Part shown: in pieces, positions 3,621 to 61,292 of the stretch | Position numbering within the stretch: the first letter of the stretch is position 1 | Layout of the letters: each line of letters begins with the position of its first letter | Source of the DNA: Bacilli bacterium | Lineage (GTDB): Bacteria; Bacillota_I; Bacilli_A; ML615J-28; CAG-698 | Direction of reading: 5' to 3' | Length of the DNA stretch: 64,000 nt | NCBI GenBank assembly: GCA_050174575.1 | Contig: JBFXJT010000007.1 | Coordinates: 6,648-70,647, forward strand | Translations under genes and position numbers: made by a program | The notes under the pieces: model-generated | Told to the model about the DNA's origin: nothing | Seen by the model: the letters and a program-made list of their open reading frames with translations, nothing else | Databases searched by the model: none

Positions 3621-5477
3621 TTACTTCAATTTAATTATTTTTGCCGATTTTCTAGGAACATTGATTTTTTTTACAATCCAAATGTCATCAATCAAATCAA
3701 AACCTTCATTCAATTGATATTGAATTTCATGATTATTGTTGTTAATTATCGTTAATATTTTATCATTTCCCTTGCTTCTTGAGAAAGCAAAGATGTTGTT
3801 GGCTGTCGATTCTTCACAGTAATTACCATCAACAAAAATGGGATCTTTTCTAATAGCACCTAGTTTTTGATACCAACTTAAGATCTCTTGATTAATATTA
3901 TCCCAGTTGATTGTTTTACGGCAGAAAGGATCTCTGAACCCTTCAAGACCTGTTTCATCGCCATAAAAAATGGAAGGAACACCAGGGAGAGTAAACTGGA
4001 TGGCTGTTGCCATTTTCAATTTCATGATGGCATTGGAATAATCATTTTGATTCATATAATAATAGGCTTGCTCTTCTTTTGATAAATGGTCACCGTTTAC
4101 AAAAGCAAAATTAGTTAATAAACGAACTGTATCATGGGTTCCCAAATGGTTCATTAAACAATCCACTACTTGCTTAGGATAATTATTGATAAGATGACGT
4201 ATTTGAATAACCAACCCTGTTAAATTGTCATGGTTTAAAAAGTCGATAATTGCATTTTTTAAGGGGTAATTCATGACACTATCCATTTGTCTTCCCAATA
4301 AATATTTTCTTCTTTGGTCATAAGCCAATTTTGTGGATGCATCCTCCCAAACTTCACCGATTACAATGTTTTCAGGATTGTTTTTTTTCACTGAATTATA
4401 AATTTTCTCTAAGAAAGCATTATTTAGTTCATCAACAACATCTAGTCGAACACCTTTTGCTCCTTTCGTTAACCATTTATCTAAAACACCATATTTCCCA
4501 GTAATAAATTGTTGAAAATTGGGATCTTCTTGATTAACAGCTGGAAGTGTCTTAAAGCCCCACCAACAAATATATTGGTTTGGCCAATTAGTAAATTTAT
4601 ACCAACTGTAATATTTTGATGAACGTGACTGATAAGCACCAAGTTCTTGGTAATGGTTGTATTTGTTAAAATAAAGACTATCATCACCTGTATGATTAAA
4701 AACACCATCAAAAATAACTGAGATACCTTTTTCTTGGGCTTTTTGACACAATAATTGAAAGTCTTCTTCTGTTCCAAACATGGAATCAATCTTTCGGTAA
4801 TCACTTGTATCATACTTATGATTTGAAAAAGCTTCAAAAATCGGATTAAGATAAATAATGCCAACATTTAGTGATTCTAAATAGTCTAATTTGTCAATAA
4901 TACCTTGTAAATTACCACCAAAAAAATCATTATTTAAAACTGATCCATTAACAGGTTGATAATTGGGAACATCAAGCCAATTTTCATGCAATAGGGTACC
5001 AGTTTTGGGTGTCGTTTGTCCATGTTTATAAAAGCGGTCCACCATTATTTGGTACATTATTTTCCCTTTAAACCAGTTAAGATTACCAATTAGTTCTTGA
5101 TAAACTAACAATTGCCAAGATGTTGGATAATAATCCGTTAAAACACCATCCAAATCCCGATTTGAACCAATAAAATGTGTTCCATATGTGTCACTAAATT
5201 GAAAATAATACCAGTATAAACCAACTTGTGGCAACGAAAAAGAAACCGAATAAGCTTGATAGTTATTTTCGATTTGTTTTTTGACCAATCCTAATCGTTT
5301 TATTTCTTGATTCTTATCATCTTTGATAACCAAATCTAAATGGAACAGTTGATAGGCTTCTACGATATAAATAGTGATAATTACATTATCACTGATAATT
5401 ACATTATCACTATTTTTGATTGCCCCTTGAGGTGATTTAAAATGTTCAAAGAAAGGGTTGAATAAAATATTTTTCAT
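3621..5477 (-). CDS. GH13 neopullulanase / cyclomaltodextrinase-type alpha-amylase (intracellular)
   Basis: The four GH13 conserved regions are present: FNHTGDDS (I), GVRLDVVDE (II), IGEVWED (III), MNHLGTHDTVR (IV). N-terminal neopullulanase-type N-domain and no signal peptide. Overlaps malP by 4 nt. Confidence 0.85.
   Translation of the reverse strand: MKNILFNPFFEHFKSPQGAIKNSDNVIISDNVIITIYIVEAYQLFHLDLVIKDDKNQEIKRLGLVKKQIENNYQAYSVSFSLPQVGLYWYYFQFSDTYGTHFIGSNRDLDGVLTDYYPTSWQLLVYQELIGNLNWFKGKIMYQIMVDRFYKHGQTTPKTGTLLHENWLDVPNYQPVNGSVLNNDFFGGNLQGIIDKLDYLESLNVGIIYLNPIFEAFSNHKYDTSDYRKIDSMFGTEEDFQLLCQKAQEKGISVIFDGVFNHTGDDSLYFNKYNHYQELGAYQSRSSKYYSWYKFTNWPNQYICWWGFKTLPAVNQEDPNFQQFITGKYGVLDKWLTKGAKGVRLDVVDELNNAFLEKIYNSVKKNNPENIVIGEVWEDASTKLAYDQRRKYLLGRQMDSVMNYPLKNAIIDFLNHDNLTGLVIQIRHLINNYPKQVVDCLMNHLGTHDTVRLLTNFAFVNGDHLSKEEQAYYYMNQNDYSNAIMKLKMATAIQFTLPGVPSIFYGDETGLEGFRDPFCRKTINWDNINQEILSWYQKLGAIRKDPIFVDGNYCEESTANNIFAFSRSKGNDKILTIINNNNHEIQYQLNEGFDLIDDIWIVKKINVPRKSAKIIKLK
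5376..5411 (-). repeat. Perfect 18-bp tandem duplication inside the GH13 CDS (in frame)
   Basis: The unit gataattacattatcact occurs twice back to back, encoding SDNVII-SDNVII near the N-terminus. Confidence 0.9.
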
Positions 5478-7885
5478 TTTTTAAAAGACCTTAAATGCCA
5501 AATATTTTTTACATATTCATCAATACTTCGATCCGCAGAAAAGATACCTGCATTTGCAATATTGACCAAAGCCATTTGTTGCCATAATCGACGGTTTTTA
5601 TAGACTTGATCTAAATAATGATATTCCTTCATGTAGGAGTCAAAATCTGCTAAACACATATAAGGATCGGAAACAGGGAAATTATTTAATAAATAACGAG
5701 TAATGTTGTCAAAAGTCTTTCCATTGAAGCCACGGTTAAGTCGATTGATGACTTTTTTTATTAATGGATTGTTTTCATAATACATTGAGGGATTATATCC
5801 TTTTTTCCAAAGATTATTAACTTCTTCGGCGCTCATCCCAAATAAGAAAATATTATCTTTACCAACTGCTTCCGTAATTTCTACATTGGCTCCATCAAAA
5901 GTACCGAATGTTAAAGCACCATTAATCATGAATTTCATATTTCCCGTTCCACTAGCTTCTTTGCCAGCTAACGATATTTGTTCACTAATATCGCTAGCAG
6001 GTATAATTTTTTCAGCCATGGTAACATTGTAATTTTCAACAAAAACAACATTTAACTTCTCACGAATCAGTTGATTTTTATTAATGTCTTGAGAAATTGC
6101 ACAGATTAACTCGATAATTTCTTTCGCAACAAAATATCCCGGTGCAGCTTTTGCACCAAAAATATAAGTTTGTGGAGTAACATCTGCGTGAGGGTTTTCT
6201 TCTAATTCGATTAATAAAGCAACAATTTTAAGTGCATTTAACAATTGTCTTTTATATTCATGGAGACGTTTTATTTGCACATCAAATCTTGTTTTCGGAT
6301 TGATATTGATGCCTGTTTGTTTAAACAAATATTTCGCAAATTCAACTTTATTGTAGTTTTTTATCAATTCAAGTTGTTTTAATGTCTCATCATCTTCTTT
6401 AAAAGTTAATAACTGACGAAGTTCACTTGCATCGGTTAAATAGCCTTTTCCGATTGTTCGGTCCAACAATTCAACAAGTTTTGGGTTTGCTTGATAAAGC
6501 CAGCGGCGGTAAGCAATTCCATTGGTCACATTGGTAAATTTTTCTGGCCAAATTTGTGCAAAACCTTTAAATAAGTCATTTTTAATAATATCACTGTGTA
6601 ATTTGGAAACACCGTTAACTTTATGAGAAGCAATGACTGATAAATTAGCCATTCTTATTTGGCCTTGATGGATAATTGCTAAGTTGGCGATTTGTTGTTC
6701 GGACAATTGCCACTTTTCGCATGTCTTCACAAAAAGATTATTTATTTGCTTTAAGATAATATAAATCCTTGGCAATAATTTTTGAATTAATTCTTCGGAC
6801 CATTTTTCTAGTGCTTCTGCCATGACGGTATGATTGGTATAGCTGATGGTTGTTTGCACGATTCCCCAACTTTCTTCAAAACTTAAATCATATTCATCAA
6901 TTAAAATACGCATTAATTCCGGAATACATAAAGCTGGATGAGTATCGTTGATGTGAATAGCCACATACTTAGGAAGACTATGGATATCGCCATAATAACG
7001 AAGATGATCGGCAATAATGTTTTGCATTGAAGCACTTACTAAAAAATACTGTTGTTTTACACGGAGAGCTTTACCTTCATAATGATCATCCGAAGGATAA
7101 AGTACTTTAGATATTAAATCAGCTTCATTGTATTCTTTCATGGCTTCCATATAATCGCCTTGGGAAAACAATTTTAAATTGAAATCTTGAATATTTCGAC
7201 TACGCCATAATCGAAGGACACTGATGGCTTCACTATTAGCACCCGAAACCATCATATCGTAAGGAACAGCTTCAATCGCTTTATAGTTTAGGTAATCATA
7301 TATGATTTTATCGCCAACATGTTTTTCGATTACTTCACCATTAAACTTAACTTGGTAAACTTTGTCTCCGCGAAGCGTTAACCAAACTTCACCACCTGGT
7401 AACCAAACATCCGGTAATTCTGTTTGCCAACCATTGACTATTTTTTGTTTAAACAAACCATATTCATAACGGATGGAAAACCCCATGGCTGGATAGGCTT
7501 GTGAAGCTAAAGCGTCTAAGTAACAAGCGCCTAATCGCCCTAATCCACCATTGCCTAAACCGGCATCCGGTTCATGCTCATATAAATCTTCCAAAGTAAA
7601 CCCAATGCTCTCAAGGATGCTAGAAAACTCGTTAACTAATCCAAGATTATATAAATTATTTTTAAAAGAACGACCCATGAGAAATTCCATGCATAGATAA
7701 TAAACACGTTTCCCTTGGTTTTCTTTTACAATATTATTATAAACCTTGCGTTTTTTGCGAAGAATATCATTGATAGTTACCGCTGAAGCTTTATATAATT
7801 GTTCAATATTGGCATCAGCAAGGGCAACTCCGTACATTTTGGATAAATTGTCTTCAATGATATCTCTTAATTCCATTTTATTCAT
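5474..7885 (-). CDS. glgP: Alpha-glucan (maltodextrin/glycogen) phosphorylase
   Basis: 803 aa. The pyridoxal-phosphate lysine motif EASGTGNMKFMINGALTFGTFDGANVEI is present, with GT35-like sequence throughout. Confidence 0.92.
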   Translation of the reverse strand: MNKMELRDIIEDNLSKMYGVALADANIEQLYKASAVTINDILRKKRKVYNNIVKENQGKRVYYLCMEFLMGRSFKNNLYNLGLVNEFSSILESIGFTLEDLYEHEPDAGLGNGGLGRLGACYLDALASQAYPAMGFSIRYEYGLFKQKIVNGWQTELPDVWLPGGEVWLTLRGDKVYQVKFNGEVIEKHVGDKIIYDYLNYKAIEAVPYDMMVSGANSEAISVLRLWRSRNIQDFNLKLFSQGDYMEAMKEYNEADLISKVLYPSDDHYEGKALRVKQQYFLVSASMQNIIADHLRYYGDIHSLPKYVAIHINDTHPALCIPELMRILIDEYDLSFEESWGIVQTTISYTNHTVMAEALEKWSEELIQKLLPRIYIILKQINNLFVKTCEKWQLSEQQIANLAIIHQGQIRMANLSVIASHKVNGVSKLHSDIIKNDLFKGFAQIWPEKFTNVTNGIAYRRWLYQANPKLVELLDRTIGKGYLTDASELRQLLTFKEDDETLKQLELIKNYNKVEFAKYLFKQTGININPKTRFDVQIKRLHEYKRQLLNALKIVALLIELEENPHADVTPQTYIFGAKAAPGYFVAKEIIELICAISQDINKNQLIREKLNVVFVENYNVTMAEKIIPASDISEQISLAGKEASGTGNMKFMINGALTFGTFDGANVEITEAVGKDNIFLFGMSAEEVNNLWKKGYNPSMYYENNPLIKKVINRLNRGFNGKTFDNITRYLLNNFPVSDPYMCLADFDSYMKEYHYLDQVYKNRRLWQQMALVNIANAGIFSADRSIDEYVKNIWHLRSFKK

Positions 7886-9524: not shown

Positions 9525-9776
9525 TTATTGTTTTTTTGTAAGACTTCGAGTGATTCGTAATGCAAATAAAATGATGATGCCAAAGAAACCAATAGCTCCT
9601 GGGATAAGAATAACTTCGAGTCCATCTAAAACAGCCTGTAATCCGAGCAATAAAGATATAAAAGCAAAAATTGCTAGAAAAATACAAAACGCTCCACCAA
9701 TTAAAGCTAGCATATCTATAATAATATTAAACTTACTTTCAAACCAATCCAAAAAACGATTAAATTTATTTTTCAT
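9525..9776 (-). CDS. Small two-TM membrane protein (hypothetical)
   Basis: ORF in the malQ-upstream gap with two hydrophobic helices. The likely start is the second ATG, preceded by AAAGGA. The overlapping ORFs on the other frames lack such features. Confidence 0.4.
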   Translation of the reverse strand: MKNKFNRFLDWFESKFNIIIDMLALIGGAFCIFLAIFAFISLLLGLQAVLDGLEVILIPGAIGFFGIIILFALRITRSLTKKQ

Positions 9777-9837
9777 CTTATGTCCTTTCATGAACTTGAT
9801 TGATTATATCTTTTTTAAAACCTTTTTACAAGTTATT

Positions 9838-10734
9838 TTATAAACTATTTTTCTTGAAAACAATGACGATATTTCCAGTCGATGTTTTAGCGGTAATATT
9901 TTTTGTTCCTTGTGGATTTAAAACTTGGCTGGCAATTTTTAATCCTTGATAAGTAATATCACCGGTGGAAACAGATACGTCAACACGATAATCATCTTCT
10001 TCTCCCAATAAGTCAATATAGACTGATCCGGTTGAAGTACTACTCGTAACGTCATCACTAGTTATATCATTTAAATCAATTGTTCCTGTTGATGATGTCC
10101 CAGATATTGTCGGAGCACTTACGACATTCATTTTGATTTTACCTGTTGAAGTGCTGGCTTTGATCTCTTGTGCTTGAATAGTGTCGAGATTAACCGATCC
10201 TGTTGCCGTTTGCGCCGTCAATTTGTTAATAATGGAACAATTGCTCACTGTTACATCACCGGTGGATGTTGTTAATTTTAAAGACGGAAGTTGCGTAAAA
10301 CCATCAATTTCTAACGAACCAGTATCTGTCTCGCCTACAATTAACCCATTATAGTTGACTGGAAGAACAACCTTAATTAGCGAAACCGCTTGACTTTTAT
10401 AACCCCAAATAAAGAATAATTGGCGACTTGTATTATCTAATGTTAATACTCCATCTACTAAAGAATAGCTAAAATAATCATATTCTGATTCATAATAGGT
10501 TAAGGTATATGTACTATCAAGTGATTCTTCAAAGATTATATTATGAGTTGATCCTTCAATATACACTTCAGTGATGGCTTCATTGCCTGTTTTTTGAACT
10601 AAAGTAAAATCGTCATCCCGTGAAAACGCTTCGTAAATGACTGTAATATCACCTTTTGTACCAATAAAACCCCAGGTTGCTAAACCAAATCCAACAACAA
10701 GGATGAGTATTAAGATTGTTTTGATTGTTTTCAT
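9838..10734 (-). CDS. DUF4097 / putative adhesin (LiaF-like beta-helix) domain protein with N-terminal TM anchor
   Basis: Repetitive STSTG...T.SGS beta-strand repeats typical of DUF4097. Start taken at the internal MKTIKTILIL (hydrophobic anchor), which abuts the DUF1700 stop. Confidence 0.6.
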   Translation of the reverse strand: MKTIKTILILILVVGFGLATWGFIGTKGDITVIYEAFSRDDDFTLVQKTGNEAITEVYIEGSTHNIIFEESLDSTYTLTYYESEYDYFSYSLVDGVLTLDNTSRQLFFIWGYKSQAVSLIKVVLPVNYNGLIVGETDTGSLEIDGFTQLPSLKLTTSTGDVTVSNCSIINKLTAQTATGSVNLDTIQAQEIKASTSTGKIKMNVVSAPTISGTSSTGTIDLNDITSDDVTSSTSTGSVYIDLLGEEDDYRVDVSVSTGDITYQGLKIASQVLNPQGTKNITAKTSTGNIVIVFKKNSL

Positions 10735-13569: not shown

Positions 13570-13644
13570 TGGTGGAATCAGAGGGGTTTGAACCCACGAC
13601 CCCTTGCACGTCAAGCAAGTGCTCTCCCGCTGAGCTATGATTCC
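13570..13644 (-). tRNA. tRNA-Val (anticodon GAC)
   Basis: 75 nt: GGAATCA-TA-GCTC-AGCGGGA-GAGC-A-CTTGC-TTGACGT-GCAAG-...-TTCAAAC-...-TGATTCC-ACCA. The acceptor, D and anticodon stems pair perfectly; there is one T-stem mismatch; CCA is encoded. Confidence 0.85.
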
Positions 13645-13731: not shown

Positions 13732-14469
13732 CTATTCATTCAATTGCTTTCTTCTAATTAATTCTAAAACAGCAAAAGATGCTACATCTTCGGCATATTT
13801 CTTTTGACCGAATCCAGCATCATACCCCAATTCTTTTGCAAGTTCATGAGTTATTCTGGCTCCTCCGGCAATCAAAAGGACTTGATCTCTAATCCCTTCC
13901 GCTTCTAACATTTCCACAAGTTCTAATAAATTTTTCAAATGAACGTCTTTTTGTGTTACTGTTTGGCTAACAAGCAAAACATCCGCTTTAACTTCTTTAG
14001 CTTTTTTCACAAAAGCTTCATTGGAAACTTGACTACCTAAATTGTAAGTTTTGATGTTTTTATAGCGTTCTAAACCATAATGACCAGCAAAACCCTTCAT
14101 GTTCATAATGGCATCGATCCCAACAGTATGGGCATCAGTTCCTGTAGAAGCACCAATAAAAACAATTTCTCTTTTCAATTCGTTTTCAATCATTATTTCT
14201 ATTTCTTCTTTTGTATAAGTCGGAGTTGTGACATCACTAACATGAATAAGATTAGGATCAACAGAAAAAGGAATGGATCCATAAATAACATAAAAGCTAA
14301 AATTATCGCCCAAGGTCTCAGCTGCAACAACTTGAGGATCAATCAAACCCATTTGTTTTGCAAGAGACTTAGCGCATTCAATTCCTAGCGTGTTATTAAC
14401 AAGCGGTAAAGAAAAACTTATTTGGACTTTACCATCATTTGATGTATCGCCATAAGGTTTAATCAACAT
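13732..14469 (-). CDS. kamE: Lysine 5,6-aminomutase beta subunit (B12-binding)
   Basis: 245 aa. B12-binding Rossmann domain with DxHxxG motif (GTDAHTVGIDAI). Overlaps kamD. Confidence 0.85.
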   Translation of the reverse strand: MLIKPYGDTSNDGKVQISFSLPLVNNTLGIECAKSLAKQMGLIDPQVVAAETLGDNFSFYVIYGSIPFSVDPNLIHVSDVTTPTYTKEEIEIMIENELKREIVFIGASTGTDAHTVGIDAIMNMKGFAGHYGLERYKNIKTYNLGSQVSNEAFVKKAKEVKADVLLVSQTVTQKDVHLKNLLELVEMLEAEGIRDQVLLIAGGARITHELAKELGYDAGFGQKKYAEDVASFAVLELIRRKQLNE

Positions 14470-16015
14470 GTTCTTCCTCCTCTAAAGCATCCATAACAAC
14501 ATTAACATAATTGTGGTGCTTTAAAAAAACGCCTTCTAATCCTTTTCCTCCAGTAAAACTGCGTTTGATGTCCGCAAATACGCCGTTTTCTAAAGCTTTG
14601 AATAGCGACATTTGTTCGATTTCTTGCAATAATTGATGAGCTTCGTTCAAAACATTTTTAGCTCTTTTTGCCATGATTCCATTTTGTTTATATTCAATTT
14701 CATCACCGAATGACTTCATCGAATTAGCAATCAATTTTGCATTTTCAATTGCTAAGTAGCGATCAGACATAAATGGTGTATGAATGGCTTCCGTCATCAT
14801 CCCCAACAGATGAATTGATTGATTAGAGATGATTGTTGCCATATTGAACATTGTGTTTTGCATATAAGCTCGGAAAATATTCCCAGTTATATGTTTTGTT
14901 GGTGGCATATATTTTAAAGGAGCCTCAGGGAAAATTTCTCTAGCCATTTGAGCTTGGGCTAATTCATACAAAAAACTATTTTCAATTGTCGGATCAATTT
15001 CAAAAGCATGGCCTAAACCCATTAAATTTTTTGGGAGGTGAGCTTTTATGGCGAATTGTTCATTAATAAATTGTGAAGCTAAAACGGTATGAGCTTGCGA
15101 ATAGGCATCAGCTGTTGTTAAGTAATTATCTTCACCGGTATTAATGATGATTCCCGCTAAAGCATTAATCCTTCTTGAAAAATTTTGATCAATTAGCGTT
15201 CTTTGCATATTAATATCACGGAAAATTATGCCATAAAGACTATCATTGAGTAAAACGTCGAGCCTTTCCAAAGCAGCCATTGCGGCGATTTCCGGCATAC
15301 ATAAACCCGATGCATAATTGACTAATTTTATATACCTTTTTTCCTGATGAGAAACCTGATCAAGTGCTTCACGCATAATGCGAAAGTTTTCTTGGGTGGC
15401 ATAAGTTCCGCCAAATCCCTCAGTTGTCGCCCCAAAAGGAACAAAATCTAATAAAGACTGCCCTGTTGACCTAATAACGGCAATAATATCAGCACCAGCC
15501 TTGGCAGCAGCTTTAGCTTGGATGACATCTTCATAGATGTTACCCGTTGCTACAATAACATAAATTTCAGTTGCTTTAGGTGGATATAGAGTAAACAAAG
15601 CTGCTCTTTTTTGTTTGTTTTGTTTAATTTTTTCTATTTGTTTTTGAACATATGGCTGTAAACTTAATTTAATATTTTTAGGAGATGCTAACGGAAAATC
15701 CGTTAATTTCATATCACCATTTAGGACGCTAGCCACCAAATCATTTAATGTTTTTTTAGTAGCAATCAAGGCACTCCCTAGATAACTGGAAACACCCAAA
15801 GTCAAATCGCCACTTTCTTTAACTTGGTTGACTAGTACATTAGGGATTGGCACGTCGAAGTCATCGACGCCATCAATTCCTAATAATCGAACAACAGTCC
15901 GCTCAATGGCAACGGTCGTGCGTTCGTTGATAAAGTTCTGAACATCATCAGCAATATGCAAGGCACATTGGCGACATTCATTGATAATATTTTGATCTAA
16001 ATGGAATTTATTCAT
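14459..16015 (-). CDS. kamD: Lysine 5,6-aminomutase alpha subunit
   Basis: 518 aa, the size and composition of the KamD/OraE-type TIM-barrel alpha subunit. Sits between the embedded P-loop gene and kamE. Confidence 0.8.
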   Translation of the reverse strand: MNKFHLDQNIINECRQCALHIADDVQNFINERTTVAIERTVVRLLGIDGVDDFDVPIPNVLVNQVKESGDLTLGVSSYLGSALIATKKTLNDLVASVLNGDMKLTDFPLASPKNIKLSLQPYVQKQIEKIKQNKQKRAALFTLYPPKATEIYVIVATGNIYEDVIQAKAAAKAGADIIAVIRSTGQSLLDFVPFGATTEGFGGTYATQENFRIMREALDQVSHQEKRYIKLVNYASGLCMPEIAAMAALERLDVLLNDSLYGIIFRDINMQRTLIDQNFSRRINALAGIIINTGEDNYLTTADAYSQAHTVLASQFINEQFAIKAHLPKNLMGLGHAFEIDPTIENSFLYELAQAQMAREIFPEAPLKYMPPTKHITGNIFRAYMQNTMFNMATIISNQSIHLLGMMTEAIHTPFMSDRYLAIENAKLIANSMKSFGDEIEYKQNGIMAKRAKNVLNEAHQLLQEIEQMSLFKALENGVFADIKRSFTGGKGLEGVFLKHHNYVNVVMDALEEEEHVD

Positions 16016-16016
16016 A

Positions 16017-17000
16017 TTAATTACTCTTTTCTAAAACATCGTATATCGGTAAAGTTATTCTATCTTCTATTTTATTACGAAAATTTGCTAAAGAAATGAC
16101 ATTTCCAGTAGGAGAGAATGGATTAAAAGTTAAGGCAACAAGATTTATTGGTTGAAGTACAAAAATTTTTTGTTTTAAAAGCAACAAATGTTTTAACAAA
16201 ATATCATCAGCTAATAAATGTGTAGGACTATTAACGATTAAATCACAATTTAAGTTTTGACGATTGTCAATTAAGGCTTTTAAAAATGATGGACTAACCG
16301 CTTTAGGAACATATACATAACGAATATTTTGCTTAATTTGGGAAATTATGTCTGCTCCACAATCTAGTGTTGTCGTTCTTTTTAAGAATGACATTTTATT
16401 TTGATCATCAATTAAAACAATGTCATCCCATTCTTTTAAGTCAAGTGTCCCATTATATTTTGGCAAATTGAATAATTTGATGGTGTTTAAAGTATGTAGA
16501 ACAATTTTGTCAAGTTGATAGGAAAAACTAGAACCAACACAAAAAATCGTGGCATCACAAATTTGTGCAAGGGTTGTTCGGGAAAAAGCTCCATCAATCA
16601 ATATTTTTTGACATTCATATTCTTTTAATTTATCAATAATCATCCGCATTGATTGAATTGTCGATGGTCCCCCAACAAGACAGTTGCCGGCTTTGGTAAT
16701 TTTGATTAACACAATGGGACCTAATGCGGTCACAATCTTTGTTTCTTCGATAATGTCATATTGGGCTTCACATTCATCCAAACAATTTTTAGCGGTTGCA
16801 ACAATGGTGTTTGTGGAAGTAAAAATCCTTGGTTTCGGCAAGAAAGTGATTTGATCAATTTTTTCGCCATCAAGGCCAATAGAAGAAATACCCGTTGTAA
16901 TCGATTGATATTGTGTTAACAAAAAATTTAAAACTGTTGTTTTCCCTGCATTTTTTGCATTGCCAACTGTACAAATTACTTGATAATCTTCAAGTAATGA
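16017..17000 (-). CDS. CbiA/CobQ-like P-loop ATPase embedded in the kam operon (candidate aminomutase chaperone/reactivase); start codon unresolved
   Basis: The first canonical start (TTG, complement of 16920-16922) lies downstream of a Walker-A-like segment VICTVGNAKNAGKTTVLNF. That segment is in frame and stop-free back into the kamA 3' end, and the only in-frame initiator candidate there is ATT. Coordinates include the upstream extension. Confidence 0.55.
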   Translation of the reverse strand, partial: SLLEDYQVICTVGNAKNAGKTTVLNFLLTQYQSITTGISSIGLDGEKIDQITFLPKPRIFTSTNTIVATAKNCLDECEAQYDIIEETKIVTALGPIVLIKITKAGNCLVGGPSTIQSMRMIIDKLKEYECQKILIDGAFSRTTLAQICDATIFCVGSSFSYQLDKIVLHTLNTIKLFNLPKYNGTLDLKEWDDIVLIDDQNKMSFLKRTTTLDCGADIISQIKQNIRYVYVPKAVSPSFLKALIDNRQNLNCDLIVNSPTHLLADDILLKHLLLLKQKIFVLQPINLVALTFNPFSPTGNVISLANFRNKIEDRITLPIYDVLEKSN

Positions 17001-17002
17001 AG

Positions 17003-18259
17003 TTAATGCTTTAATGCTCGTTCTCGTCTTTCTAAATGTTTGGGTTCGATTGCTCTTTGTTTGCCGGCAAGTAATCCACTAACACCTTCAGCTTCTTTAC
17101 TAGTACTGCAATTTGGATTTTCATGATAATCAGTTGGTTCATTGTAAGTGGTAATAACACCTTCATAATTTCTCAAAACAACTTTTCCCGGTGCTTGTGA
17201 AATTACATAGTTAGGCATAACGGGGATTTTACCTCCACCACCAGGAGCATCAACGACAAATGTCGGAACGCATAACCCACTAATGTGACCACGTAAACCT
17301 TCGATAATTTCAATACCTTTACTAATTGGTGTTCGGAAATGCTCAATACCAAGAGAAAGATCACATTGGTATAAATAGTATGGGCGAACACGCATTTGCA
17401 CTAAGCACGTGCATAATTTTCGCATTGTATCGACACAGTCATTAACGCCTCTTAAAAGAACACTTTGATTTCCCAAAGGAATTCCGGCATCAGCCATTTT
17501 CGCAATAGCCTTGGCACTTTCTTCAGTTATTTCATCATAATGGTTAAAATGAGTATTTACCCAAATAGGATGATATTTTTTTAACATTGAAACAAGTTCG
17601 TCCGTAATTCTTTGAGGCATAACAACGGGTGTCCTTGTGCCAATGCGGATAATTTCTACATGGTCAATTGCTCTTAAACGAGAAATGATTGATTCCAATT
17701 TCGCATCACTCATTAATAAAGCATCACCACCGGATAACAAGACATCTCGAACAGCAGGTGTTTTGCGAATATACTCAATTGCTTGTTCAATGCGATCACT
17801 TGGTAAATCATGGTCTGTTTGTCCTGCAAAACGTCTTCTTGTACAATGACGGCAATACATACTACACATATCCGTAATCAAAAACAAAACACGGTCAGGA
17901 TAACGATGTGTTAATCCAGGTACAGGTGAATCCTTATCTTCATCAAGCGGATCAACAAGATCGTTCTTGCCAATGATCATTTCATTAATGCTCGGGATAG
18001 CCTGTTTTCTAATTGGGCAATCAACGTTGTCTGGATCGATTAAACACAAAAAATAAGGTGTAATGGCCATCCGAAAACGTGATAGTACTTCAGTAATCTG
18101 TTGTTCTTCTTCGCTCGTTAAATTGATATATTTTTTAAGTTGCAAGACATCGGTAATCCGGTTTCGAACCTGCCAATGCCAGTCTTGCCAATCTGTTGAA
18201 GAGACATTAGGAAAATACTTTTGTTTTCTTTCTAAATATCTTTCATTTACTATTAACAT
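17003..18259 (-). CDS. kamA: L-lysine 2,3-aminomutase (radical SAM)
   Basis: 418 aa. Radical-SAM cluster motif CSMYCRHCTRRR (CxxxCxxC) with KamA-like flanks. Confidence 0.92.
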   Translation of the reverse strand: MLIVNERYLERKQKYFPNVSSTDWQDWHWQVRNRITDVLQLKKYINLTSEEEQQITEVLSRFRMAITPYFLCLIDPDNVDCPIRKQAIPSINEMIIGKNDLVDPLDEDKDSPVPGLTHRYPDRVLFLITDMCSMYCRHCTRRRFAGQTDHDLPSDRIEQAIEYIRKTPAVRDVLLSGGDALLMSDAKLESIISRLRAIDHVEIIRIGTRTPVVMPQRITDELVSMLKKYHPIWVNTHFNHYDEITEESAKAIAKMADAGIPLGNQSVLLRGVNDCVDTMRKLCTCLVQMRVRPYYLYQCDLSLGIEHFRTPISKGIEIIEGLRGHISGLCVPTFVVDAPGGGGKIPVMPNYVISQAPGKVVLRNYEGVITTYNEPTDYHENPNCSTSKEAEGVSGLLAGKQRAIEPKHLERRERALKH

Positions 18260-18262
18260 AAT

Positions 18263-19303
18263 TTACTCCTTCGGTTGATATCTTTTTACAAATAGATCAT
18301 AAAGCGGTTTTGATTCCCTTAAAAGGCTCAAGGTTAAATCGGCGTGTCCCGGAGTATAACCGTTACCGATAATCATGGTAGCTTCACTGGCAATGCCTTC
18401 AGCACCTAAAGCAGCTTTTGTGAAAGAAGTTGCCATACTGAAGAAATAAACAATACCGCTTGGTTTGGTTGCTAAAATCGATGTCATTTCTGTATTTGGA
18501 ACATTAACGACATTAATTGTGACATCAACTTGTTGATTATTATTGACTCGCATGATTTCTTGATAGACTGCCATCGGATCTCTAGCATCTGCTACAATGA
18601 TTTCGTCACAGACTCCGAGTGATTGCAAATCTTCAAGTTTATTGGTATTACTTATTAGCGCTATGATTTTGCCATTTGGACCGGCGTTCTTGTGAGCTTG
18701 ATAGCAGCATAATACACCACTTTTACCAGCTGCCCCTAGCACCAAAACAGTATTGTTAGGTTTAACCAATTTTTCAACTTGTGCAGGTGCACCAGCAACA
18801 TCTAAAGCAGATAATACTAAATGTTCACTTAAGTCATTGGGGATTTTCGCATAAATGCCCGTAGCAAATAAGATTGCTTCTGCTTCAACATCAACTTGAT
18901 CTTTATGCAAATGAATTTGTTTGATCGCTTTTATTTTTAATGGTGTTAGTGATAAAGAAACTAAAGTCACAATTTTATCACCAATTTTTAAATCGCATTT
19001 TAAGTCTTTTCCTATTTGTTTAATAACACCTAAAAGCATTCCCCCACTACCTGTTACAGGGTTTTGCATTTTTCCGCGTTTATTGACAATATCCATAATC
19101 ATCGTTTTCATGGCTTCCACATCACTATTAGTTGCTTGTTTAATTTGGGTAAAAGATGCGGAATCGATATTTAATGTTTTTACATCAATTAAAATTTCAT
19201 TGTCTTGGCAAATCATCGTATTATCTAATTGATCTGCAGCTTGAGGGAGAACACCTACCGGACTAATGACACGGTGAGTTCCATAAGGGCATGGCTTTTT
19301 CAT
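18263..19303 (-). CDS. kdd: L-erythro-3,5-diaminohexanoate dehydrogenase
   Basis: 346 aa NAD(P)-dependent dehydrogenase in the canonical position between kamA and kce. Rossmann GAAGKSG. Confidence 0.7.
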   Translation of the reverse strand: MKKPCPYGTHRVISPVGVLPQAADQLDNTMICQDNEILIDVKTLNIDSASFTQIKQATNSDVEAMKTMIMDIVNKRGKMQNPVTGSGGMLLGVIKQIGKDLKCDLKIGDKIVTLVSLSLTPLKIKAIKQIHLHKDQVDVEAEAILFATGIYAKIPNDLSEHLVLSALDVAGAPAQVEKLVKPNNTVLVLGAAGKSGVLCCYQAHKNAGPNGKIIALISNTNKLEDLQSLGVCDEIIVADARDPMAVYQEIMRVNNNQQVDVTINVVNVPNTEMTSILATKPSGIVYFFSMATSFTKAALGAEGIASEATMIIGNGYTPGHADLTLSLLRESKPLYDLFVKRYQPKE

Positions 19304-20127
19304 ATTTTCTTCTCCATTCTTAATATTTTTCTAGTTTCTTCGGGATTGGCAATTTCCCGATTGTATTTTTTTGCAATTTGAACGACTTTCGCTACTAAAG
19401 CGGCATTCGATGGAGCTAATACTCCTTTGTCAATGTAAATATTGTCTTCTAAACCAACGCGAACATGACCACCATGCATAATGGAAAGTTCTGCAAGGGA
19501 AAATTCAAAACGACCGATTCCGGCAACACTATATGTCGCATCATTTGGAATGCTGTCCTTTAAAAACAGAAAATCCCGTTCTTCTCCAGTCATTCCACCG
19601 TTAACTCCTAAAACAAAACTAAAATGGTAGGGTGGATTAATAAAGCCTTTTTTCGCAAGTCTTTGTATCATATCAATATGACCTTTTTCAAAGCATTCAA
19701 GTTCTTTATAAATATGACGACTTTCCAAAACATTGGCAAAATACTTAATATCGTTTTCTGTATTAACAAAAATATCATCACCACCAAAGTTTAATGTTCC
19801 ACAATCAAGCGTCGCCATTTCAGGATTTAGAGTAACCGGACCTAAACGCTCATCACGGCTCATGCCAACGGCTCCTCCAGTTGATACTTGAACGATGACA
19901 TCGGGACATTTAGCTTTGATTGCTGTAATGATTTCTTTAAAACGTTTGGCATCTTGCGTCGGCGTTCCATCATCAAAACGGGCATGCAAGTGAATGATTG
20001 ATGCTTTCGCCAAATAAGCCTGATAAGCACTTTCAGCCATCTCTGAAACAGTATAGGGAACATTGGGATTATGGTCTTTAGTAACTTCCGCACCAGAAAT
20101 AGCACAAGTAATGATTAATTTTTCCAT
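19300..20127 (-). CDS. kce: 3-keto-5-aminohexanoate cleavage enzyme (BKACE/DUF849)
   Basis: ~275 aa TIM-barrel DUF849-type protein. The likely start is the internal [14 protein letters not shown]. Sits between kal and kdd. Confidence 0.7.
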
Positions 20128-20507
20128 GTTTTCCTCTGAAGAGCTTTTGGTACAACACAAGTACCCTTTGCAGAAGCAACCAAAATTGGTTCATCTAAAA
20201 AATCAGCTGCTGAAGGAACAATATTTGGTTTAGCTTCGATTACTTTGTAACATGCAAAAGTCATTTTTCTTGAAGTGTTTCCCACTTCAACAATTTCACC
20301 ATGCACTTCCAAAAAGTCACCAGCATAAACCGGAGCCAAAAAATCTACTTGCTCGTAAGCCCGAAATAATCCTTCATCTCCATCATGGCGAATGAGCAAT
20401 TCTGTCGCAACATCGCCAAATAAAGCTAAGATTCGAGCTCCATCCACAAGATTTCCTCCATAATGGGCATCGCTTAAGGACATTCGTAAACGGATTATTG
20501 TTTTCAT
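20115..20507 (-). CDS. kal: 3-aminobutyryl-CoA ammonia-lyase
   Basis: 130 aa hot-dog-fold protein of the size characteristic of Kal, between the CoA-transferase genes and kce. Confidence 0.65.
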
Positions 20508-21151
20508 ATTGAAACTCCTTTCATTGGCAATACTTGATCAATAATTAAAGTTGCTTCAGTTACAGCGACAACTTCATCAATCGAATAATTAGGATGAACT
20601 TCTAATAGATGTAACCCATCGTCACGAACCTCCATAACGGCCATTTCTGTAACGATTAAGTTAGCTTGTTTATAAGCAGTAAGTGGTAAAACACAACGTT
20701 TTAATATTTTTGATTTTCCATTATTTGTATGTTGCATCGCAATAATAACCTTTTTAGCACCAACAACCAAATCCATGGCACCACCCATTCCCGGAACTTT
20801 CTTTCCTGGAATAATCCATGAAGCAAGGCTACCTTCTTCATCAACTTCAAGAGCACCTAGGACAGTGACATCAACATGACCACCACGAATAAACATAAAG
20901 GAAGTTGCAGAATCAATAAACGATCCTCCCGGCATAATCGTTGCTTTCATTCCTCCGGCATTAACGATATCACTTTGTTCTTCTGTTAATGGGCCAATAC
21001 CAATTATTCCATTTTCTGATTGTAAAATGACATGTTTGGTCGGAGGAATAAAATTTGCCACTAAAGTAGGAGTACCAATACCCAAATTGACAATATCGCC
21101 ATCTTTAAGTTCTAAAGCTATTCGACTAGCAATAATAAACTTTTCGTCCAT
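20504..21151 (-). CDS. atoA: CoA-transferase subunit B (acetoacetate:butyrate/acetate CoA-transferase)
   Basis: 215 aa 3-oxoacid CoA-transferase beta-subunit-like protein. Overlaps both neighbouring genes. Confidence 0.8.
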
Positions 21152-21798
21152 TATTCCACCTCCATAACGATGTAATCAACTAACGGAAAAGGTGTAATGA
21201 CTGCTTCAGGATCTATTTCTTCAAGTTTTTGCTGGCATACAGCAATCACTAATGATGCAGCTGTAGCCATGATTGGATTAAAATTACGCATTGTTTTGCG
21301 ATATGCAAGATTTCCATATCGATCGCAAATCGCTCCACCAATTAAAGCTAAGTCAGCAAATAACGGTTCTTCTAGCAAATAATCAATCCCTTGAACCTGG
21401 ATTACTCTTTTCCCTTCTTGAACAATTGTTTTTAGTCCAGTTGGGGTCAAAACACCACCTAGTCCCGCACCTGCAGCACGGATTTGTTCGACCAATGTCC
21501 CTTGAGGAACTAAAACAACTTCTAGTTTACCTTCTTGCATCAACTTCCCGACAGTTGGATTTGTTCCAATATGGGATGCAATCAATTTTTTAACCCGATT
21601 AGCAACAATCAATTTTCCAACTCCTCGGTCTTCAAATCCTCCGTCATTACAAATGATTGTAAAATCGGTAAAACTTGTTTCTAAAATTAAATCAATTAAG
21701 TAATCAGGACTTCCGTTTGCTAAAAAACCACCAACCATAATCGTCATGCCGGATTTAAGGTGACTTTTAAAATTTTCCTTACAAATAAAACCTCGCAT
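21151..21798 (-). CDS. atoD: CoA-transferase subunit A
   Basis: 215 aa 3-oxoacid CoA-transferase alpha-subunit-like protein (GGF..NGSP...). Confidence 0.8.
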
Positions 21799-21807
21799 AT
21801 TTCCTCC

Positions 21808-22224
21808 TTACTTAGGGGGCATAATAGTCGCTTCACCGACTATCACCACTTCGTTTTTGTCGTTTTTTGCAACGCAATCAAAAACAACACGATTTTTTTC
21901 CATAATGATTTCTTTTACAGTCACAAAAGCCGTTATTGTATCATTCAAATAAACTGGCTTAATAAACTTTAAACTTTGGAAAGTATAGATACTTCCTAAA
22001 CCAGGTAATTCAGTACCTAAGATGGCACTAAAAAGAGAGCCAACAAGCATACCATGAACTATCCTCGTTTTAAAAATCGTTGTTTTTGCATAATCTTCAT
22101 TTACATGAGCGGGGTTAAAGTCACCAGAAACTGAGGCAAAATTGTTAACATCAGTTTCTGTAAAACTCTTTGTTATTGAACTTGTTTGTCCAATAAACAA
22201 TTCGTTAATTGTCAATTTTTTCAA
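21808..22224 (-). CDS. MaoC-like (R)-specific enoyl-CoA hydratase / hot-dog protein, first gene of the lysine operon
   Basis: The MaoC dehydratase domain begins at KKLTINELFIGQ. The probable start is TTG (complement of 22222-22224), 8 nt after RBS AAAGGAG. The longer ATG-extended ORF would run through the terminator hairpin and riboswitch. Confidence 0.6.
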   Translation of the reverse strand: MKKLTINELFIGQTSSITKSFTETDVNNFASVSGDFNPAHVNEDYAKTTIFKTRIVHGMLVGSLFSAILGTELPGLGSIYTFQSLKFIKPVYLNDTITAFVTVKEIIMEKNRVVFDCVAKNDKNEVVIVGEATIMPPK

Positions 22225-22241
22225 GAAATAACTCCTTTCAT

Positions 22242-22273
22242 AAAAAAAGCTGTTGTCTTTTAAAGACAACAGC
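22242..22273 (-). terminator. Riboswitch expression-platform terminator
   Basis: GCUGUUGUCUU-uua-AAGACAACAGC followed by UUUUUUU, immediately upstream of the RBS of the first operon gene. Confidence 0.8.
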
Positions 22274-22435
22274 GCTCCATTTCCCAAATGGCAGTGGATA
22301 AGGCATTCCTTGTCCACCAAGACTTTAATGAATGAACTCATTAAATCTTTCGGCGATATTTCCCTTTATTTGTCACATTGGGAGTTCATTCCCTTAGCAT
22401 TGACAAATTACCCTAAATAACGCACCTCTGTGTAT
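22262..22435 (-). promoter_or_regulatory. Lysine riboswitch (L-box) aptamer in the 5' leader of the lysine-fermentation operon
   Basis: Leader begins ACAGAGGUGCG (L-box AGAGGUGCG) and contains AAAGGGAAAUAUCGCCGAAAG (L-box GGGGAGCGUCGCCGAAG), the UUUGUCA...UGACAAA helix, CCAUUUGGGAAAUGG and the 3' GGAGCGCUGU (L-box GGAG(G/C)GCUAUC). About 170 nt, matching the length and order of the B. subtilis lysC element. Confidence 0.75.
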
Positions 22436-22446
22436 TAACTAATACT

Positions 22447-22475
22447 ATTATACCGAAACAAAAATGGCTTGTCAA
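22447..22475 (-). promoter_or_regulatory. Consensus sigma70 promoter of the lysine-fermentation operon
   Basis: Minus strand TTGACA (22470-22475), a 17-nt spacer, then TATAAT (22447-22452). The transcript start is predicted ~10 nt upstream of the aptamer. Confidence 0.8.
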
Positions 22476-22492
22476 GAGCCACAAAGTTAAAC

Positions 22493-22516
22493 AAAAAAAC
22501 ACTCCAATTGGAGTGC
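22493..22516 (-). terminator. Rho-independent terminator of the speD-speE-GGDEF operon
   Basis: CACUCC-aauu-GGAGUG followed by UUUUUUU, directly after the stop at 22517. Confidence 0.75.
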
Positions 22517-24157
22517 TTAATCGTTTTGTTTGGTAAGATAGAAATATTTAGTATCCGCTTCAGCCATATGACCAACAATAAAATTATCTACTAAAAACGA
22601 TGCTAAAACGATACTTTTTATTTCACCATTTTGATATTTCTTTTTCATATCATTTGCTTTTAAAATAATGTCGCGATGCAGAGCACAATGTTCATCATAA
22701 TTAGGATAATCTAAATTATACATTACTTTTTCTTCAAAATAAAAATGTTGAGAAATGTGTTTGATGATTTTTTCAATTTGATTGATAATTTTTTCATAGG
22801 GAACATTTGTTTGAAACATAAAAATTAAGTTGTTTCCCAATTCAATAATCTCTCGATGTTGATTATCTATATCAACATTGCCACTACTCCATTCATTATG
22901 CCATTCAAAATACGGTGAAGTTGATAAAGATTCCATGGAGAGGCTCTCTGAAGAGCTTGCCACACGGTTACGTCCCTGTTCTTTTGCACAGTACATTGCA
23001 TCATCCGTACGTTTATACCAACTTCTTAATGACTCGTTAGGAATCATTTGGGCAACACCAAAACTTGCCGTTAATTTGGAAATAATGGGAAACCTGAAAC
23101 CTGCAACAGCAATTCGAATTTTATCAGCAACTTTTACAGCATCTTCCACTTTTGTATCTGGCAATACGATAACAAATTCTTCGCCTCCAAGACGAGACAA
23201 ATAGTCTGTTTTTCTAATTGATGATTTTAACAGTTGGGAAAAACTTACTAAAATATCATCACCAACAGGATGGCCCCAAGTATCATTTACAAATTTAAAA
23301 TGATCAATATCAGCAATAATCATTGATAAAGGCAAAGCTGTATTGTTGGCTTTTTCCATTGTTTCATTAGTAATTTTATGAAAGAAGTGACGATTGTAAA
23401 GTCCGGTAAGGTTATCAATTGTCATTTCAAATTCAAGACGGTTAGCTAATTCTACTGTTTTAGTGATATCGCGTGCAGACGCATAAATAAATCTTCCAAA
23501 TTGTTTTGCCCGCCACTCTAAAAAATGATATTGTCCATTTTTATCTTTATAACGATTAACAAAATTATTAATTTCTTCACCCTTAAGTAAATTTTTCATC
23601 ACTTCTCTTGTAGAAGAAATATCTTCCTCATGCATAAATTCAAAAAAAGTACGGGTTGTTAAATCAGCAAAGTTGGCTCCAACTAGGTTTTCAAAATAAT
23701 CATTTGTTTTAATAAAATGACCATCCATATCTGAGACCACTAAAAGGTCAAGGTTAACATCGATTAATCCTTTTAATAATTCCTCTTCTTTCATGGTTTT
23801 AGTGATATCTTCATAAAAGCAACCAAAGTGATGACAATCAATGGGAAAGATGGTTGCTTTAACCCATGAATGATTAATAGGTAAAAAGCAATTGCATGTT
23901 TTAACCTCTTTTTGATTTACTGCTTTCCTAAAGTTTTGATACCATTCATTGTTAAAATGATTATTAACATTTGCTGTTGATAAATAACTTTTTCCTATTA
24001 ATGCTTCTTTTGGAAGTGGAATAAACCGTTCAAACGCTTCGTTTACTCCGGAAAAATAGTAGTCAACAGGTTCTTGTTTTTCGTTAAAGATAATTTCATG
24101 AAAAGAACAAGGAATAGGAGATTCTTTAAAAAAGTCTAAAAAATTACAGTTATTCAT
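22517..24157 (-). CDS. Sensory diguanylate cyclase: PAS - GGDEF - C-terminal hemerythrin-like domain
   Basis: GGDEF core (RLGGEEF, active-site type) and an N-terminal PAS-like region. The C-terminal ~130 aa carry hemerythrin-type H/E/D ligands (HREIIELGN..., HCALHRDI..., GHMAEAD). It lies 11 nt downstream of speE. Confidence 0.75.
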   Translation of the reverse strand: MNNCNFLDFFKESPIPCSFHEIIFNEKQEPVDYYFSGVNEAFERFIPLPKEALIGKSYLSTANVNNHFNNEWYQNFRKAVNQKEVKTCNCFLPINHSWVKATIFPIDCHHFGCFYEDITKTMKEEELLKGLIDVNLDLLVVSDMDGHFIKTNDYFENLVGANFADLTTRTFFEFMHEEDISSTREVMKNLLKGEEINNFVNRYKDKNGQYHFLEWRAKQFGRFIYASARDITKTVELANRLEFEMTIDNLTGLYNRHFFHKITNETMEKANNTALPLSMIIADIDHFKFVNDTWGHPVGDDILVSFSQLLKSSIRKTDYLSRLGGEEFVIVLPDTKVEDAVKVADKIRIAVAGFRFPIISKLTASFGVAQMIPNESLRSWYKRTDDAMYCAKEQGRNRVASSSESLSMESLSTSPYFEWHNEWSSGNVDIDNQHREIIELGNNLIFMFQTNVPYEKIINQIEKIIKHISQHFYFEEKVMYNLDYPNYDEHCALHRDIILKANDMKKKYQNGEIKSIVLASFLVDNFIVGHMAEADTKYFYLTKQND

Positions 24158-44436: not shown

Positions 44437-44527
44437 TGGCGGAGGAGAAGGGATTTGAACCCTTGCACCGTTTTACCGATCTGCTCGCTTTCGAGACGAG
44501 TCCCTTCAGCCGCTTGGGTACTCCTCC
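44437..44527 (-). tRNA. tRNA-Ser (anticodon CGA)
   Basis: 91 nt: GGAGGAG-TA-CCCAAGCGGCTGAAGGG-A-CTCGT-CTCGAAA-GCGAG-(19-nt variable arm)-AAGGG-TTCAAAT-CCCTT-CTCCTCC-GCCA. The long variable arm is characteristic of Ser. Confidence 0.85.
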
Positions 44528-61201: not shown

Positions 61202-61292
61202 TGGCGGAGGAAAGGGGATTTGAACCCCTGCGCCAGGTTAATGGCCTACTAGCTTTCCAAGCCAGCCCCTTCAGCCACTTGGGTACTCCTCC
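61202..61292 (-). tRNA. tRNA-Ser (anticodon GGA)
   Basis: 91 nt: GGAGGAG-TA-CCCAAGTGGCTGAAGGGG-CTGGC-TTGGAAA-GCTAG-(long variable arm)-GGGG-TTCAAAT-CCCC-T-TTCCTCC-GCCA. Confidence 0.85.

Follow-up and report, generated by a model that had tools for sequence, protein, structure and literature searches.

The leader RNA analysed in this study is, by its sequence, a genuine lysine riboswitch, and it very probably acts as a transcriptional ON switch for the ten-gene lysine-fermentation operon that follows it. The feature lies on the minus strand, at positions 22239-22476 of the window (the whole 64-kb stretch of DNA that was analysed). That lysine switches this operon on had been proposed in a preliminary description of the DNA, which gave no strand for the feature, and the proposal was supported computationally, both by the structure of the leader and by comparison with other lysine riboswitches.

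The elements of the leader were arranged on the minus strand in the order of upstream-gene terminator, promoter, aptamer, terminator hairpin, U7 tract, AAAGGAG and TTG start codon (Table 1). The perfect TTGACA-17-TATAAT promoter described earlier was present (22475-22447, minus strand, 12/12 consensus positions) and represented the sole perfect match among 20 promoter-like sites in the 7 kb scanned. A -10-like box was found at a similar distance 5' of AGAGG in most homologous leaders. From the position of the promoter, transcription would start at approximately 22440, giving a distance of ca. 216 nt to the TTG codon (22224); the aptamer itself measured ca. 177 nt, and the earlier figure of a ~170-nt leader was therefore too short. 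The upstream neighbor (22517-24157, minus strand), a gene for a PAS-GGDEF protein of 546 aa whose C-terminal domain is hemerythrin-like, had its own terminator and stood outside the riboswitch unit. A six-codon uORF (AUG AAA GGA GUU AUU UCU UGA, 22221-22241, minus strand) covered the Shine-Dalgarno sequence, and its stop codon overlapped the TTG start. As a regulatory element this uORF was dropped, being found in the window and in locus L001 only and absent from more distant relatives; judging by that distribution, its position over the Shine-Dalgarno sequence is probably incidental.

Table 1. Positions in the window of the leader elements and of the genes of the lysine-fermentation operon.
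Feature	Position	Strand	Basis or remark
Terminator of the upstream PAS-GGDEF-hemerythrin gene	22497..22518	-	divides that gene from the riboswitch transcription unit
-35 hexamer TTGACA	22470..22475	-	12/12 consensus match, 17-nt spacer
-10 hexamer TATAAT	22447..22452	-	promoter scan, 12/12 consensus with -35
Lysine riboswitch aptamer RF00168, full length	22262..22438	-	model 1-182/182, 81.1 bits, E 1.3e-19
P1 5' strand ACAG	22428..22431	-	Rfam alignment; extendable to 22435 if C22432 bulged
P1 3' strand CUGU	22269..22272	-	extendable to 22266; common to terminator 5' arm
Intrinsic terminator hairpin GCUGUUGUCUU-UAA-AAGACAACAGC, 11 bp, 25 nt	22249..22273	-	terminator scan; folding
Upper terminator hairpin UGUCUU-UAA-AAGACA	22254..22268	-	can form in both states (folding)
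U7 tract of terminator	22242..22248	-	sequence, terminator scan
Shine-Dalgarno AAAGGAG of first gene	22232..22238	-	read from sequence
Gene 1: MaoC-like enoyl-CoA hydratase, 138 aa, TTG start	21808..22224	-	profile match; start by comparison
Genes 2-3: CoA-transferase subunits A and B (AtoD/AtoA type)	20504..21798	-	profile match
Gene 4: Kal, 3-aminobutyryl-CoA ammonia lyase	20115..20507	-	NF052388, 194 bits, over cut-off
Gene 5: Kce, 3-keto-5-aminohexanoate cleavage enzyme	19300..20160	-	NF052387, 412 bits
Gene 6: Kdd, 3,5-diaminohexanoate dehydrogenase	18263..19303	-	profile match
Gene 7: KamA, lysine 2,3-aminomutase	17003..18259	-	TIGR03820, 611 bits
Genes 8-10: KamB (reactivase subunit), KamD, KamE (lysine 5,6-aminomutase alpha, beta)	13732..16922	-	profile match

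The identity of the aptamer was clear. Its match to the Rfam lysine model RF00168 was strong (81.1 bits, against a gathering score of 30 bits), and the Rfam scan returned no riboswitch in the 64-kb window other than this lysine aptamer. The motifs AGAGGUGCG, UCGCCGAAAG and GGAGCGCUGU, which had been read as L-box hallmarks, were each confirmed in the leader, and in the model alignment the conserved junction motifs AGAGGNGC, GCCGAA, CUGNCA and GGAGNGCU corresponded to AGAGGUGC, CGCCGAA, CUGCCA and GGAGCGCU. The P1 helix consisted of four contiguous canonical pairs, or seven with C22432 bulged, and the two outer model pairs in the Rfam alignment were non-canonical. The preliminary description had given the P1 3' strand as GCGCUGU and had placed it over the 5' arm of the terminator; the overlap was upheld, while the GCG was found to belong to J5/1, leaving CUGU(UG) as the strand.

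The terminator 5' arm began at G22273, 1 nt before the first P1 3' nucleotide (an offset of -1 nt), and the entire P1 3' strand lay inside that arm. P1 and the terminator are therefore mutually exclusive. Inspection of the leader found no sequence between P1 and the terminator able to hold an antiterminator, in agreement with the earlier statement that a separate antiterminator is missing. The hairpin and U7 tract described earlier were also present, although the stem was 11 bp with a UAA loop and not the 12-uua-12 arrangement first given, in which some bases had been counted twice. The terminator platform folded by itself at -15.7 kcal/mol.

The leader was folded with ViennaRNA from the inferred start at 22440 to the end of the U-tract. 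The unconstrained minimum free energy structure (-58.9 kcal/mol) contained the full terminator and no P1. When P1 was forced (-50.6 kcal/mol), the remaining hairpin was the 6-bp, A/U-rich UGUCUU-UAA-AAGACA at -4.3 kcal/mol, which is not a functional intrinsic terminator because five unpaired nucleotides separate it from the U7 tract. Folding with and without P1 thus bore out the idea that P1 destroys the terminator, as forcing the helix removed the functional form. In a series of growing transcripts, the upper hairpin arose when the 3' end reached 22254 and was present alongside P1 at 3' ends 22254-22253; once the 3' end had moved beyond 22252, P1 was supplanted by the terminator. By nearest-neighbor energies, the terminator state was more stable than the P1 state by 8.3 kcal/mol. 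A gap of ca. 8 kcal/mol is larger than what lysine binding could supply at equilibrium, so the switch would need kinetic control.

Downstream of the riboswitch, ten co-directional, tightly packed genes formed a run that ended at a tRNA gene. By its predicted products, the operon encodes the complete pathway of lysine fermentation to acetate and butyrate via 3,5-diaminohexanoate, with Kal, Kce, Kdd, KamA, KamB, KamD and KamE (7/7) scoring over the curated NCBIfam equivalog cut-offs. The catabolic content of the seven pathway proteins supported the earlier view of an operon that degrades lysine. The true start of Kce may be an internal ATG at residue 12. The public annotation gives gene 1 as a 177-aa protein (21808-22341, minus strand) with an ATG at 22341, inside the aptamer. 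The gene 1 TTG start and N-terminus were kept in L001, L011 and L007, and we assigned a length of 138 aa because the Shine-Dalgarno sequence, the TTG start (22224) and the N-terminus are conserved in relatives. The longer version probably arose as an artefact because the riboswitch had gone unannotated, and the annotation of gene 1 was corrected, given that the public version extends into the aptamer.

Several further features of the locus were recorded. KamB (16015-16922, minus strand) was the only reactivase subunit gene in the operon and directly adjoined kamD; the Clostridium locus L077 carried a 1.5-kb gap at the position of the KamB/KamD junction of the window, into which a second reactivase subunit could fit. 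The window contained three tRNA genes, all on the minus strand (13573-13644, 44440-44527 and 61205-61292), two of them with a long variable arm and 88 nt each; the one at 13573-13644 lay directly 3' of kamE and marked the end of the operon. The Kal protein was identical to one from an NCBI entry labeled 'MAG: Bacilli bacterium', and its nearest relatives came from Izemoplasmatales and 'Tenericutes' MAGs.

To place the leader among its relatives, a Kal protein alignment was used to obtain 80 genome loci, which were passed through a motif pre-screen and then two Rfam scans. Lysine riboswitches were confirmed in 17 of the 80 kal loci, 18 in total with scores of 59-95 bits, all of them on the coding strand and upstream of kal or of MaoC-(atoDA)-kal. 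The position of the terminator was expressed as the offset between the 5'-arm start of the first terminator and the first P1 3' nucleotide. With the window counted, the offset was 0 to -6 nt in 17/19 kal/kamA-operon leaders, and the comparison with the leaders of kamA operons therefore extended the P1/terminator overlap to diverged genomes. Aptamer identity among the kal/kamA-linked leaders had a median of only 54%, and the nested stems varied in both sequence and length (GCUGUUAUAUU/AAUAUAAUGGC, GAGCUGUCC/GGGCAGCUC and CGCUAUUGAUACC/GGUGUCAAUAGCG). A 4-bp ACAG/CUGU P1 embedded in the terminator was present in about a dozen diverged leaders. Among the ten closest platforms, the terminator helix was 92.7% paired, compared with 33-64% in slid registers, and three terminator pairs were altered on both sides, a compensatory change. 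The ten-gene order with the riboswitch in front recurred in seven complete loci and two truncated loci.

The exceptions to the nested layout were two fermentation-linked Clostridium leaders, L046 (9843-9960) and L077 (9862-9990). In both, a long hairpin contained the P1 3' strand, and 63-82 nt further downstream stood a strong terminator separate from it, which formed in silico with or without the P1 strand available. A four-helix ON platform composed of P1, hairpin A, hairpin B and the terminator was considered for this pair and was not supported, as blocking the P1 strand left the downstream terminator intact. In L046, a TATAAT-like box was also observed between the downstream terminator and kal.

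Other loci of this set differed in arrangement. L053, a MAG contig labeled Eubacterium, carried two lysine riboswitches in series (2855-3029 and 3711-3888), one before kal and the other between kal and kce, each with its own P1-overlapping terminator. In L072 (ca. 9765-9870), the P1-overlapping terminator was followed by a second one, which was preceded by a near-copy of the aptamer 3' end (AUGAAGCGCUAUUG vs AUGGAGCGCUAUUG); this second terminator may be left over from a switch duplication, or may serve as a second checkpoint. In the Acholeplasmataceae MAG locus L045, a cobalamin riboswitch (6435-6605, 83.5 bits) was found ca. 2.7 kb upstream of the lysine riboswitch. Lysine 5,6-aminomutase is a B12-dependent enzyme. 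The closest relative of the whole operon was L001 (CAZYFI010000027.1), with proteins 65-90% identical (most 81-90%) and an aptamer 84% identical. This locus was binned as 'uncultured Bacteroidales', whereas the other close relatives were all Bacilli, Izemoplasmatales or Acholeplasmataceae MAGs, and the Bacteroidales label likely reflects mis-binning or a recent transfer.

The layout of generic lysine riboswitches was established with a control set of 120 metagenomic examples, a random sample chosen by conserved aptamer motifs alone (24 fixed bases), in which the terminator was called as the first hairpin followed by at least 4 U. The terminator began +15 to +73 nt after P1 in 75 of the 120 controls, with a median of +51, and none of these 75 leaders was followed by fermentation genes. 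The remaining controls were either called as overlapping (15/120) or had no called terminator (30/120). Four of the overlapping terminators were compact (L103, L129, L132 and L196), and all four preceded kal. Two further fermentation-linked leaders, L123 and L169, contained the same P1-embedding hairpin and had been missed by the caller, the U-tract being interrupted in L169 and L123 having no good U-tract; the hairpin was thus found in 6/6 fermentation-linked control leaders (four automatically, two by eye). A control set from viral contigs, searched with a pattern of 21 fixed bases, yielded 22 stretches, and among the 19 checked with Rfam only L092 was a true lysine riboswitch.

Eleven overlap calls in the random sample stood outside fermentation operons. 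They included leaders of a LysA-type decarboxylase, Asd, aspartokinase, an NhaC-type antiporter and an amino-acid-binding protein, and two more NhaC-like genes were recognized by eye. In 7/11, a canonical terminator was located further downstream, which identifies the first hairpin as an antiterminator. The downstream terminators of L164 and L135 took their 5' arm from the 3' arm of the first hairpin, by sequence the classical antiterminator arrangement with a predicted OFF logic. The other four (L149, L186, L195 and L197) were not assigned to a class, their hairpins being long or irregular or situated at contig ends. The association between overlap and fermentation operons gave a Fisher p of 5e-4 for the automatic calls and 2e-13 for all sets pooled, values that overstate the number of independent events, as the sequences counted are related. 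The contrast with biosynthetic lysine leaders drawn in the preliminary description was therefore well founded, with 75 generic leaders offset by +15 to +73 nt and 7/11 apparent exceptions being antiterminators. Taken across these leaders, the sequences strongly indicate that direct P1/terminator overlap goes together with lysine-fermentation operons; in the random sample, the leaders of biosynthesis and transport genes do not have it.

A mechanism consistent with these findings can be proposed. RNA polymerase would start at the consensus promoter and transcribe the aptamer, the last segment of which, the P1 3' strand CUGU(UGU), would double as the base of the terminator 5' arm. When lysine is absent, the upper hairpin UGUCUU/AAGACA would form as soon as it is transcribed, and the terminator 3' arm (ACAGC) would then oust the weak 4-bp P1, completing the 11-bp terminator beside the U7 tract and halting transcription ca. 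17 nt before the start codon. By analogy with the adenine switch pbuE, the upper hairpin is likely the nucleator for strand invasion of P1. When lysine is abundant, the ligand would lock the five-way junction and the junction-proximal P1 pairs, blocking strand invasion until the polymerase clears the U-tract, and the operon would be transcribed. For this leader we infer lysine binding, kinetic control and the strand-displacement pathway, the last of which would be ligand-gated as in pbuE. With P1 weak and the decision window short, the lysine threshold would be high, which is sensible because the operon is catabolic.

The main remaining doubt about the ON logic was whether a 4-bp P1 suffices unaided. 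If it is too weak, the terminator could be mainly a constitutive attenuator, with the riboswitch modulating expression slightly at most and induction depending on something else: a protein antiterminator, for instance, a pause that requires NusA/NusG, or regulation at the level of RNA stability or translation. The four canonical pairs of P1 and the 8.3 kcal/mol advantage of the terminator state agree with such an attenuator, as does the lysC leader of B. subtilis, in which deleting 2 bp of P1 abolished the lysine response. L046 and L077 also show that some fermentation operons carry additional elements. However, the conservation of the embedded ACAG/CUGU helix across about a dozen diverged leaders argues for a functional arrangement, and pbuE is likewise biased thermodynamically toward its terminator and tolerates variation in P1 length. 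Furthermore, nearest-neighbor energies leave out the tertiary and ligand contacts that lock P1. We therefore regard a mainly constitutive attenuator as unlikely.

It was also considered whether the aptamer is a decaying relic, or a sensor of another ligand such as beta-lysine or another pathway intermediate; the intermediates of this pathway are lysine isomers. Against this stand the full-length match to the model at 81 bits, in which the conserved junction motifs are intact, the comparable scores of the 18 homologous leaders (59-95 bits), which are unlike those of a decaying element, and the lack of any systematic change in the junction motifs relative to the Rfam consensus. Both versions of this explanation appear very improbable. 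A conventional OFF switch, in which lysine promotes termination through an unrecognized antiterminator, is scarcely credible even though the experimentally characterized natural lysine riboswitches found in the literature are all OFF switches, since lysine binding needs a P1 whose 3' strand is the terminator base and cannot coexist with it, the terminator arm starts only 1 nt from the first P1 3' nucleotide and leaves no space for an antiterminator, the true OFF controls are offset by +15 to +73 nt with a recognizable antiterminator, and repression of a lysine-degrading operon by lysine would be physiologically senseless.

With lysine-dependent activation as the preferred reading, the fermentation-linked lysine riboswitches may together form a coherent class of lysine-inducible, kinetically controlled switches, an interpretation toward which we lean with some reservation. 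The class would be defined by a 4-bp P1 nested in an 11-bp terminator together with a nucleator hairpin, and would include as variants the L053 pair in series and the multi-hairpin form of L046 and L077. If such a class exists, the element in the window represents a ready-made natural lysine-ON part, and it would provide a second model beside pbuE for ligand-gated strand displacement, in this case with a large five-way-junction aptamer. Metabolic engineers have had to evolve their lysine-ON switches artificially from OFF switches, and a natural one could serve them directly.

An ON lysine switch in front of catabolic genes will not surprise a specialist, and the concept is not new, having been put forward by comparative prediction since 2003 and repeated in 2007 and 2017. 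Barrick and Breaker 2007 (PMC2258182), citing Rodionov et al. 2003, described ON-type lysine riboswitches that bury pieces of the terminator stem. Mukherjee et al. 2017 (PMC5584792) reported lysine riboswitches 5' of kal/kce in C. sticklandii, F. nucleatum and Thermoanaerobacter, and called them positively regulated, citing Serganov and Patel 2009. The carriers of a predicted ON LYS element or L-box upstream of lysine catabolic genes were Thermoanaerobacter tengcongensis, Fusobacterium nucleatum and Clostridium sticklandii (Rodionov et al. 2003, as cited in PMC2258182 and PMC5584792). Within the partial body of literature searched, no report of a bench experiment on a natural lysine ON switch turned up. 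What our study adds is another example of the predicted ON kind, from a lineage new to it and with an operon head that differs slightly; its value lies in being a very clean and compact example and in the quantification of the link between layout and pathway.

Compared through secondary citations, the switches predicted by Rodionov et al. 2003 resemble the one in the window in the aptamer family, in the kal/kce/kamA pathway and in the burial of part of the terminator by lysine. They differ from it, to the extent that those citations describe them, in that the host here is an uncultured 'Bacilli bacterium' MAG close to Izemoplasmatales, that MaoC-atoDA precedes kal in the window whereas kal or pspF comes first there, and that the platform of the window is very compact, with a 4-bp P1. 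The lysC OFF switch of B. subtilis shares with the window the aptamer family and control through an intrinsic terminator. In lysC, however, P1 has the role of an anti-antiterminator, and the stretch from P1 to the terminator holds a separate antiterminator, an element that the leader in the window does not have; the predicted logic here is inverted. The lysC-type control leaders are offset by +15 to +73 nt, as opposed to -1 in the window. The glycine riboswitch 5' of gcvT offers a physiological parallel as an amino-acid sensor that, at high ligand levels, activates breakdown of the amino acid it senses, although it belongs to another aptamer class and is often tandem.

A close mechanistic parallel is provided by the pbuE (ydhL) adenine ON switch of B. 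subtilis. In pbuE, strand exchange through P1 is nucleated by a hairpin present in both states (P4/L4) and blocked by junction contacts that depend on the ligand; whatever the ligand concentration, the ground state is the terminator. The window shares with pbuE the placement of the P1 3' strand within the terminator 5' arm, an architecture that is experimentally established for pbuE, as well as a small hairpin that can form in both states and is able to nucleate exchange, and a terminator that is the thermodynamic ground state. The two differ in the aptamer, which is a purine-binding three-way junction in pbuE and a lysine-binding five-way junction in the window, and in the depth of invasion, as the pbuE terminator invades past P1 into P3, whereas that of the window reaches 1 nt past P1 into J5/1 and those of its relatives at most 6 nt.
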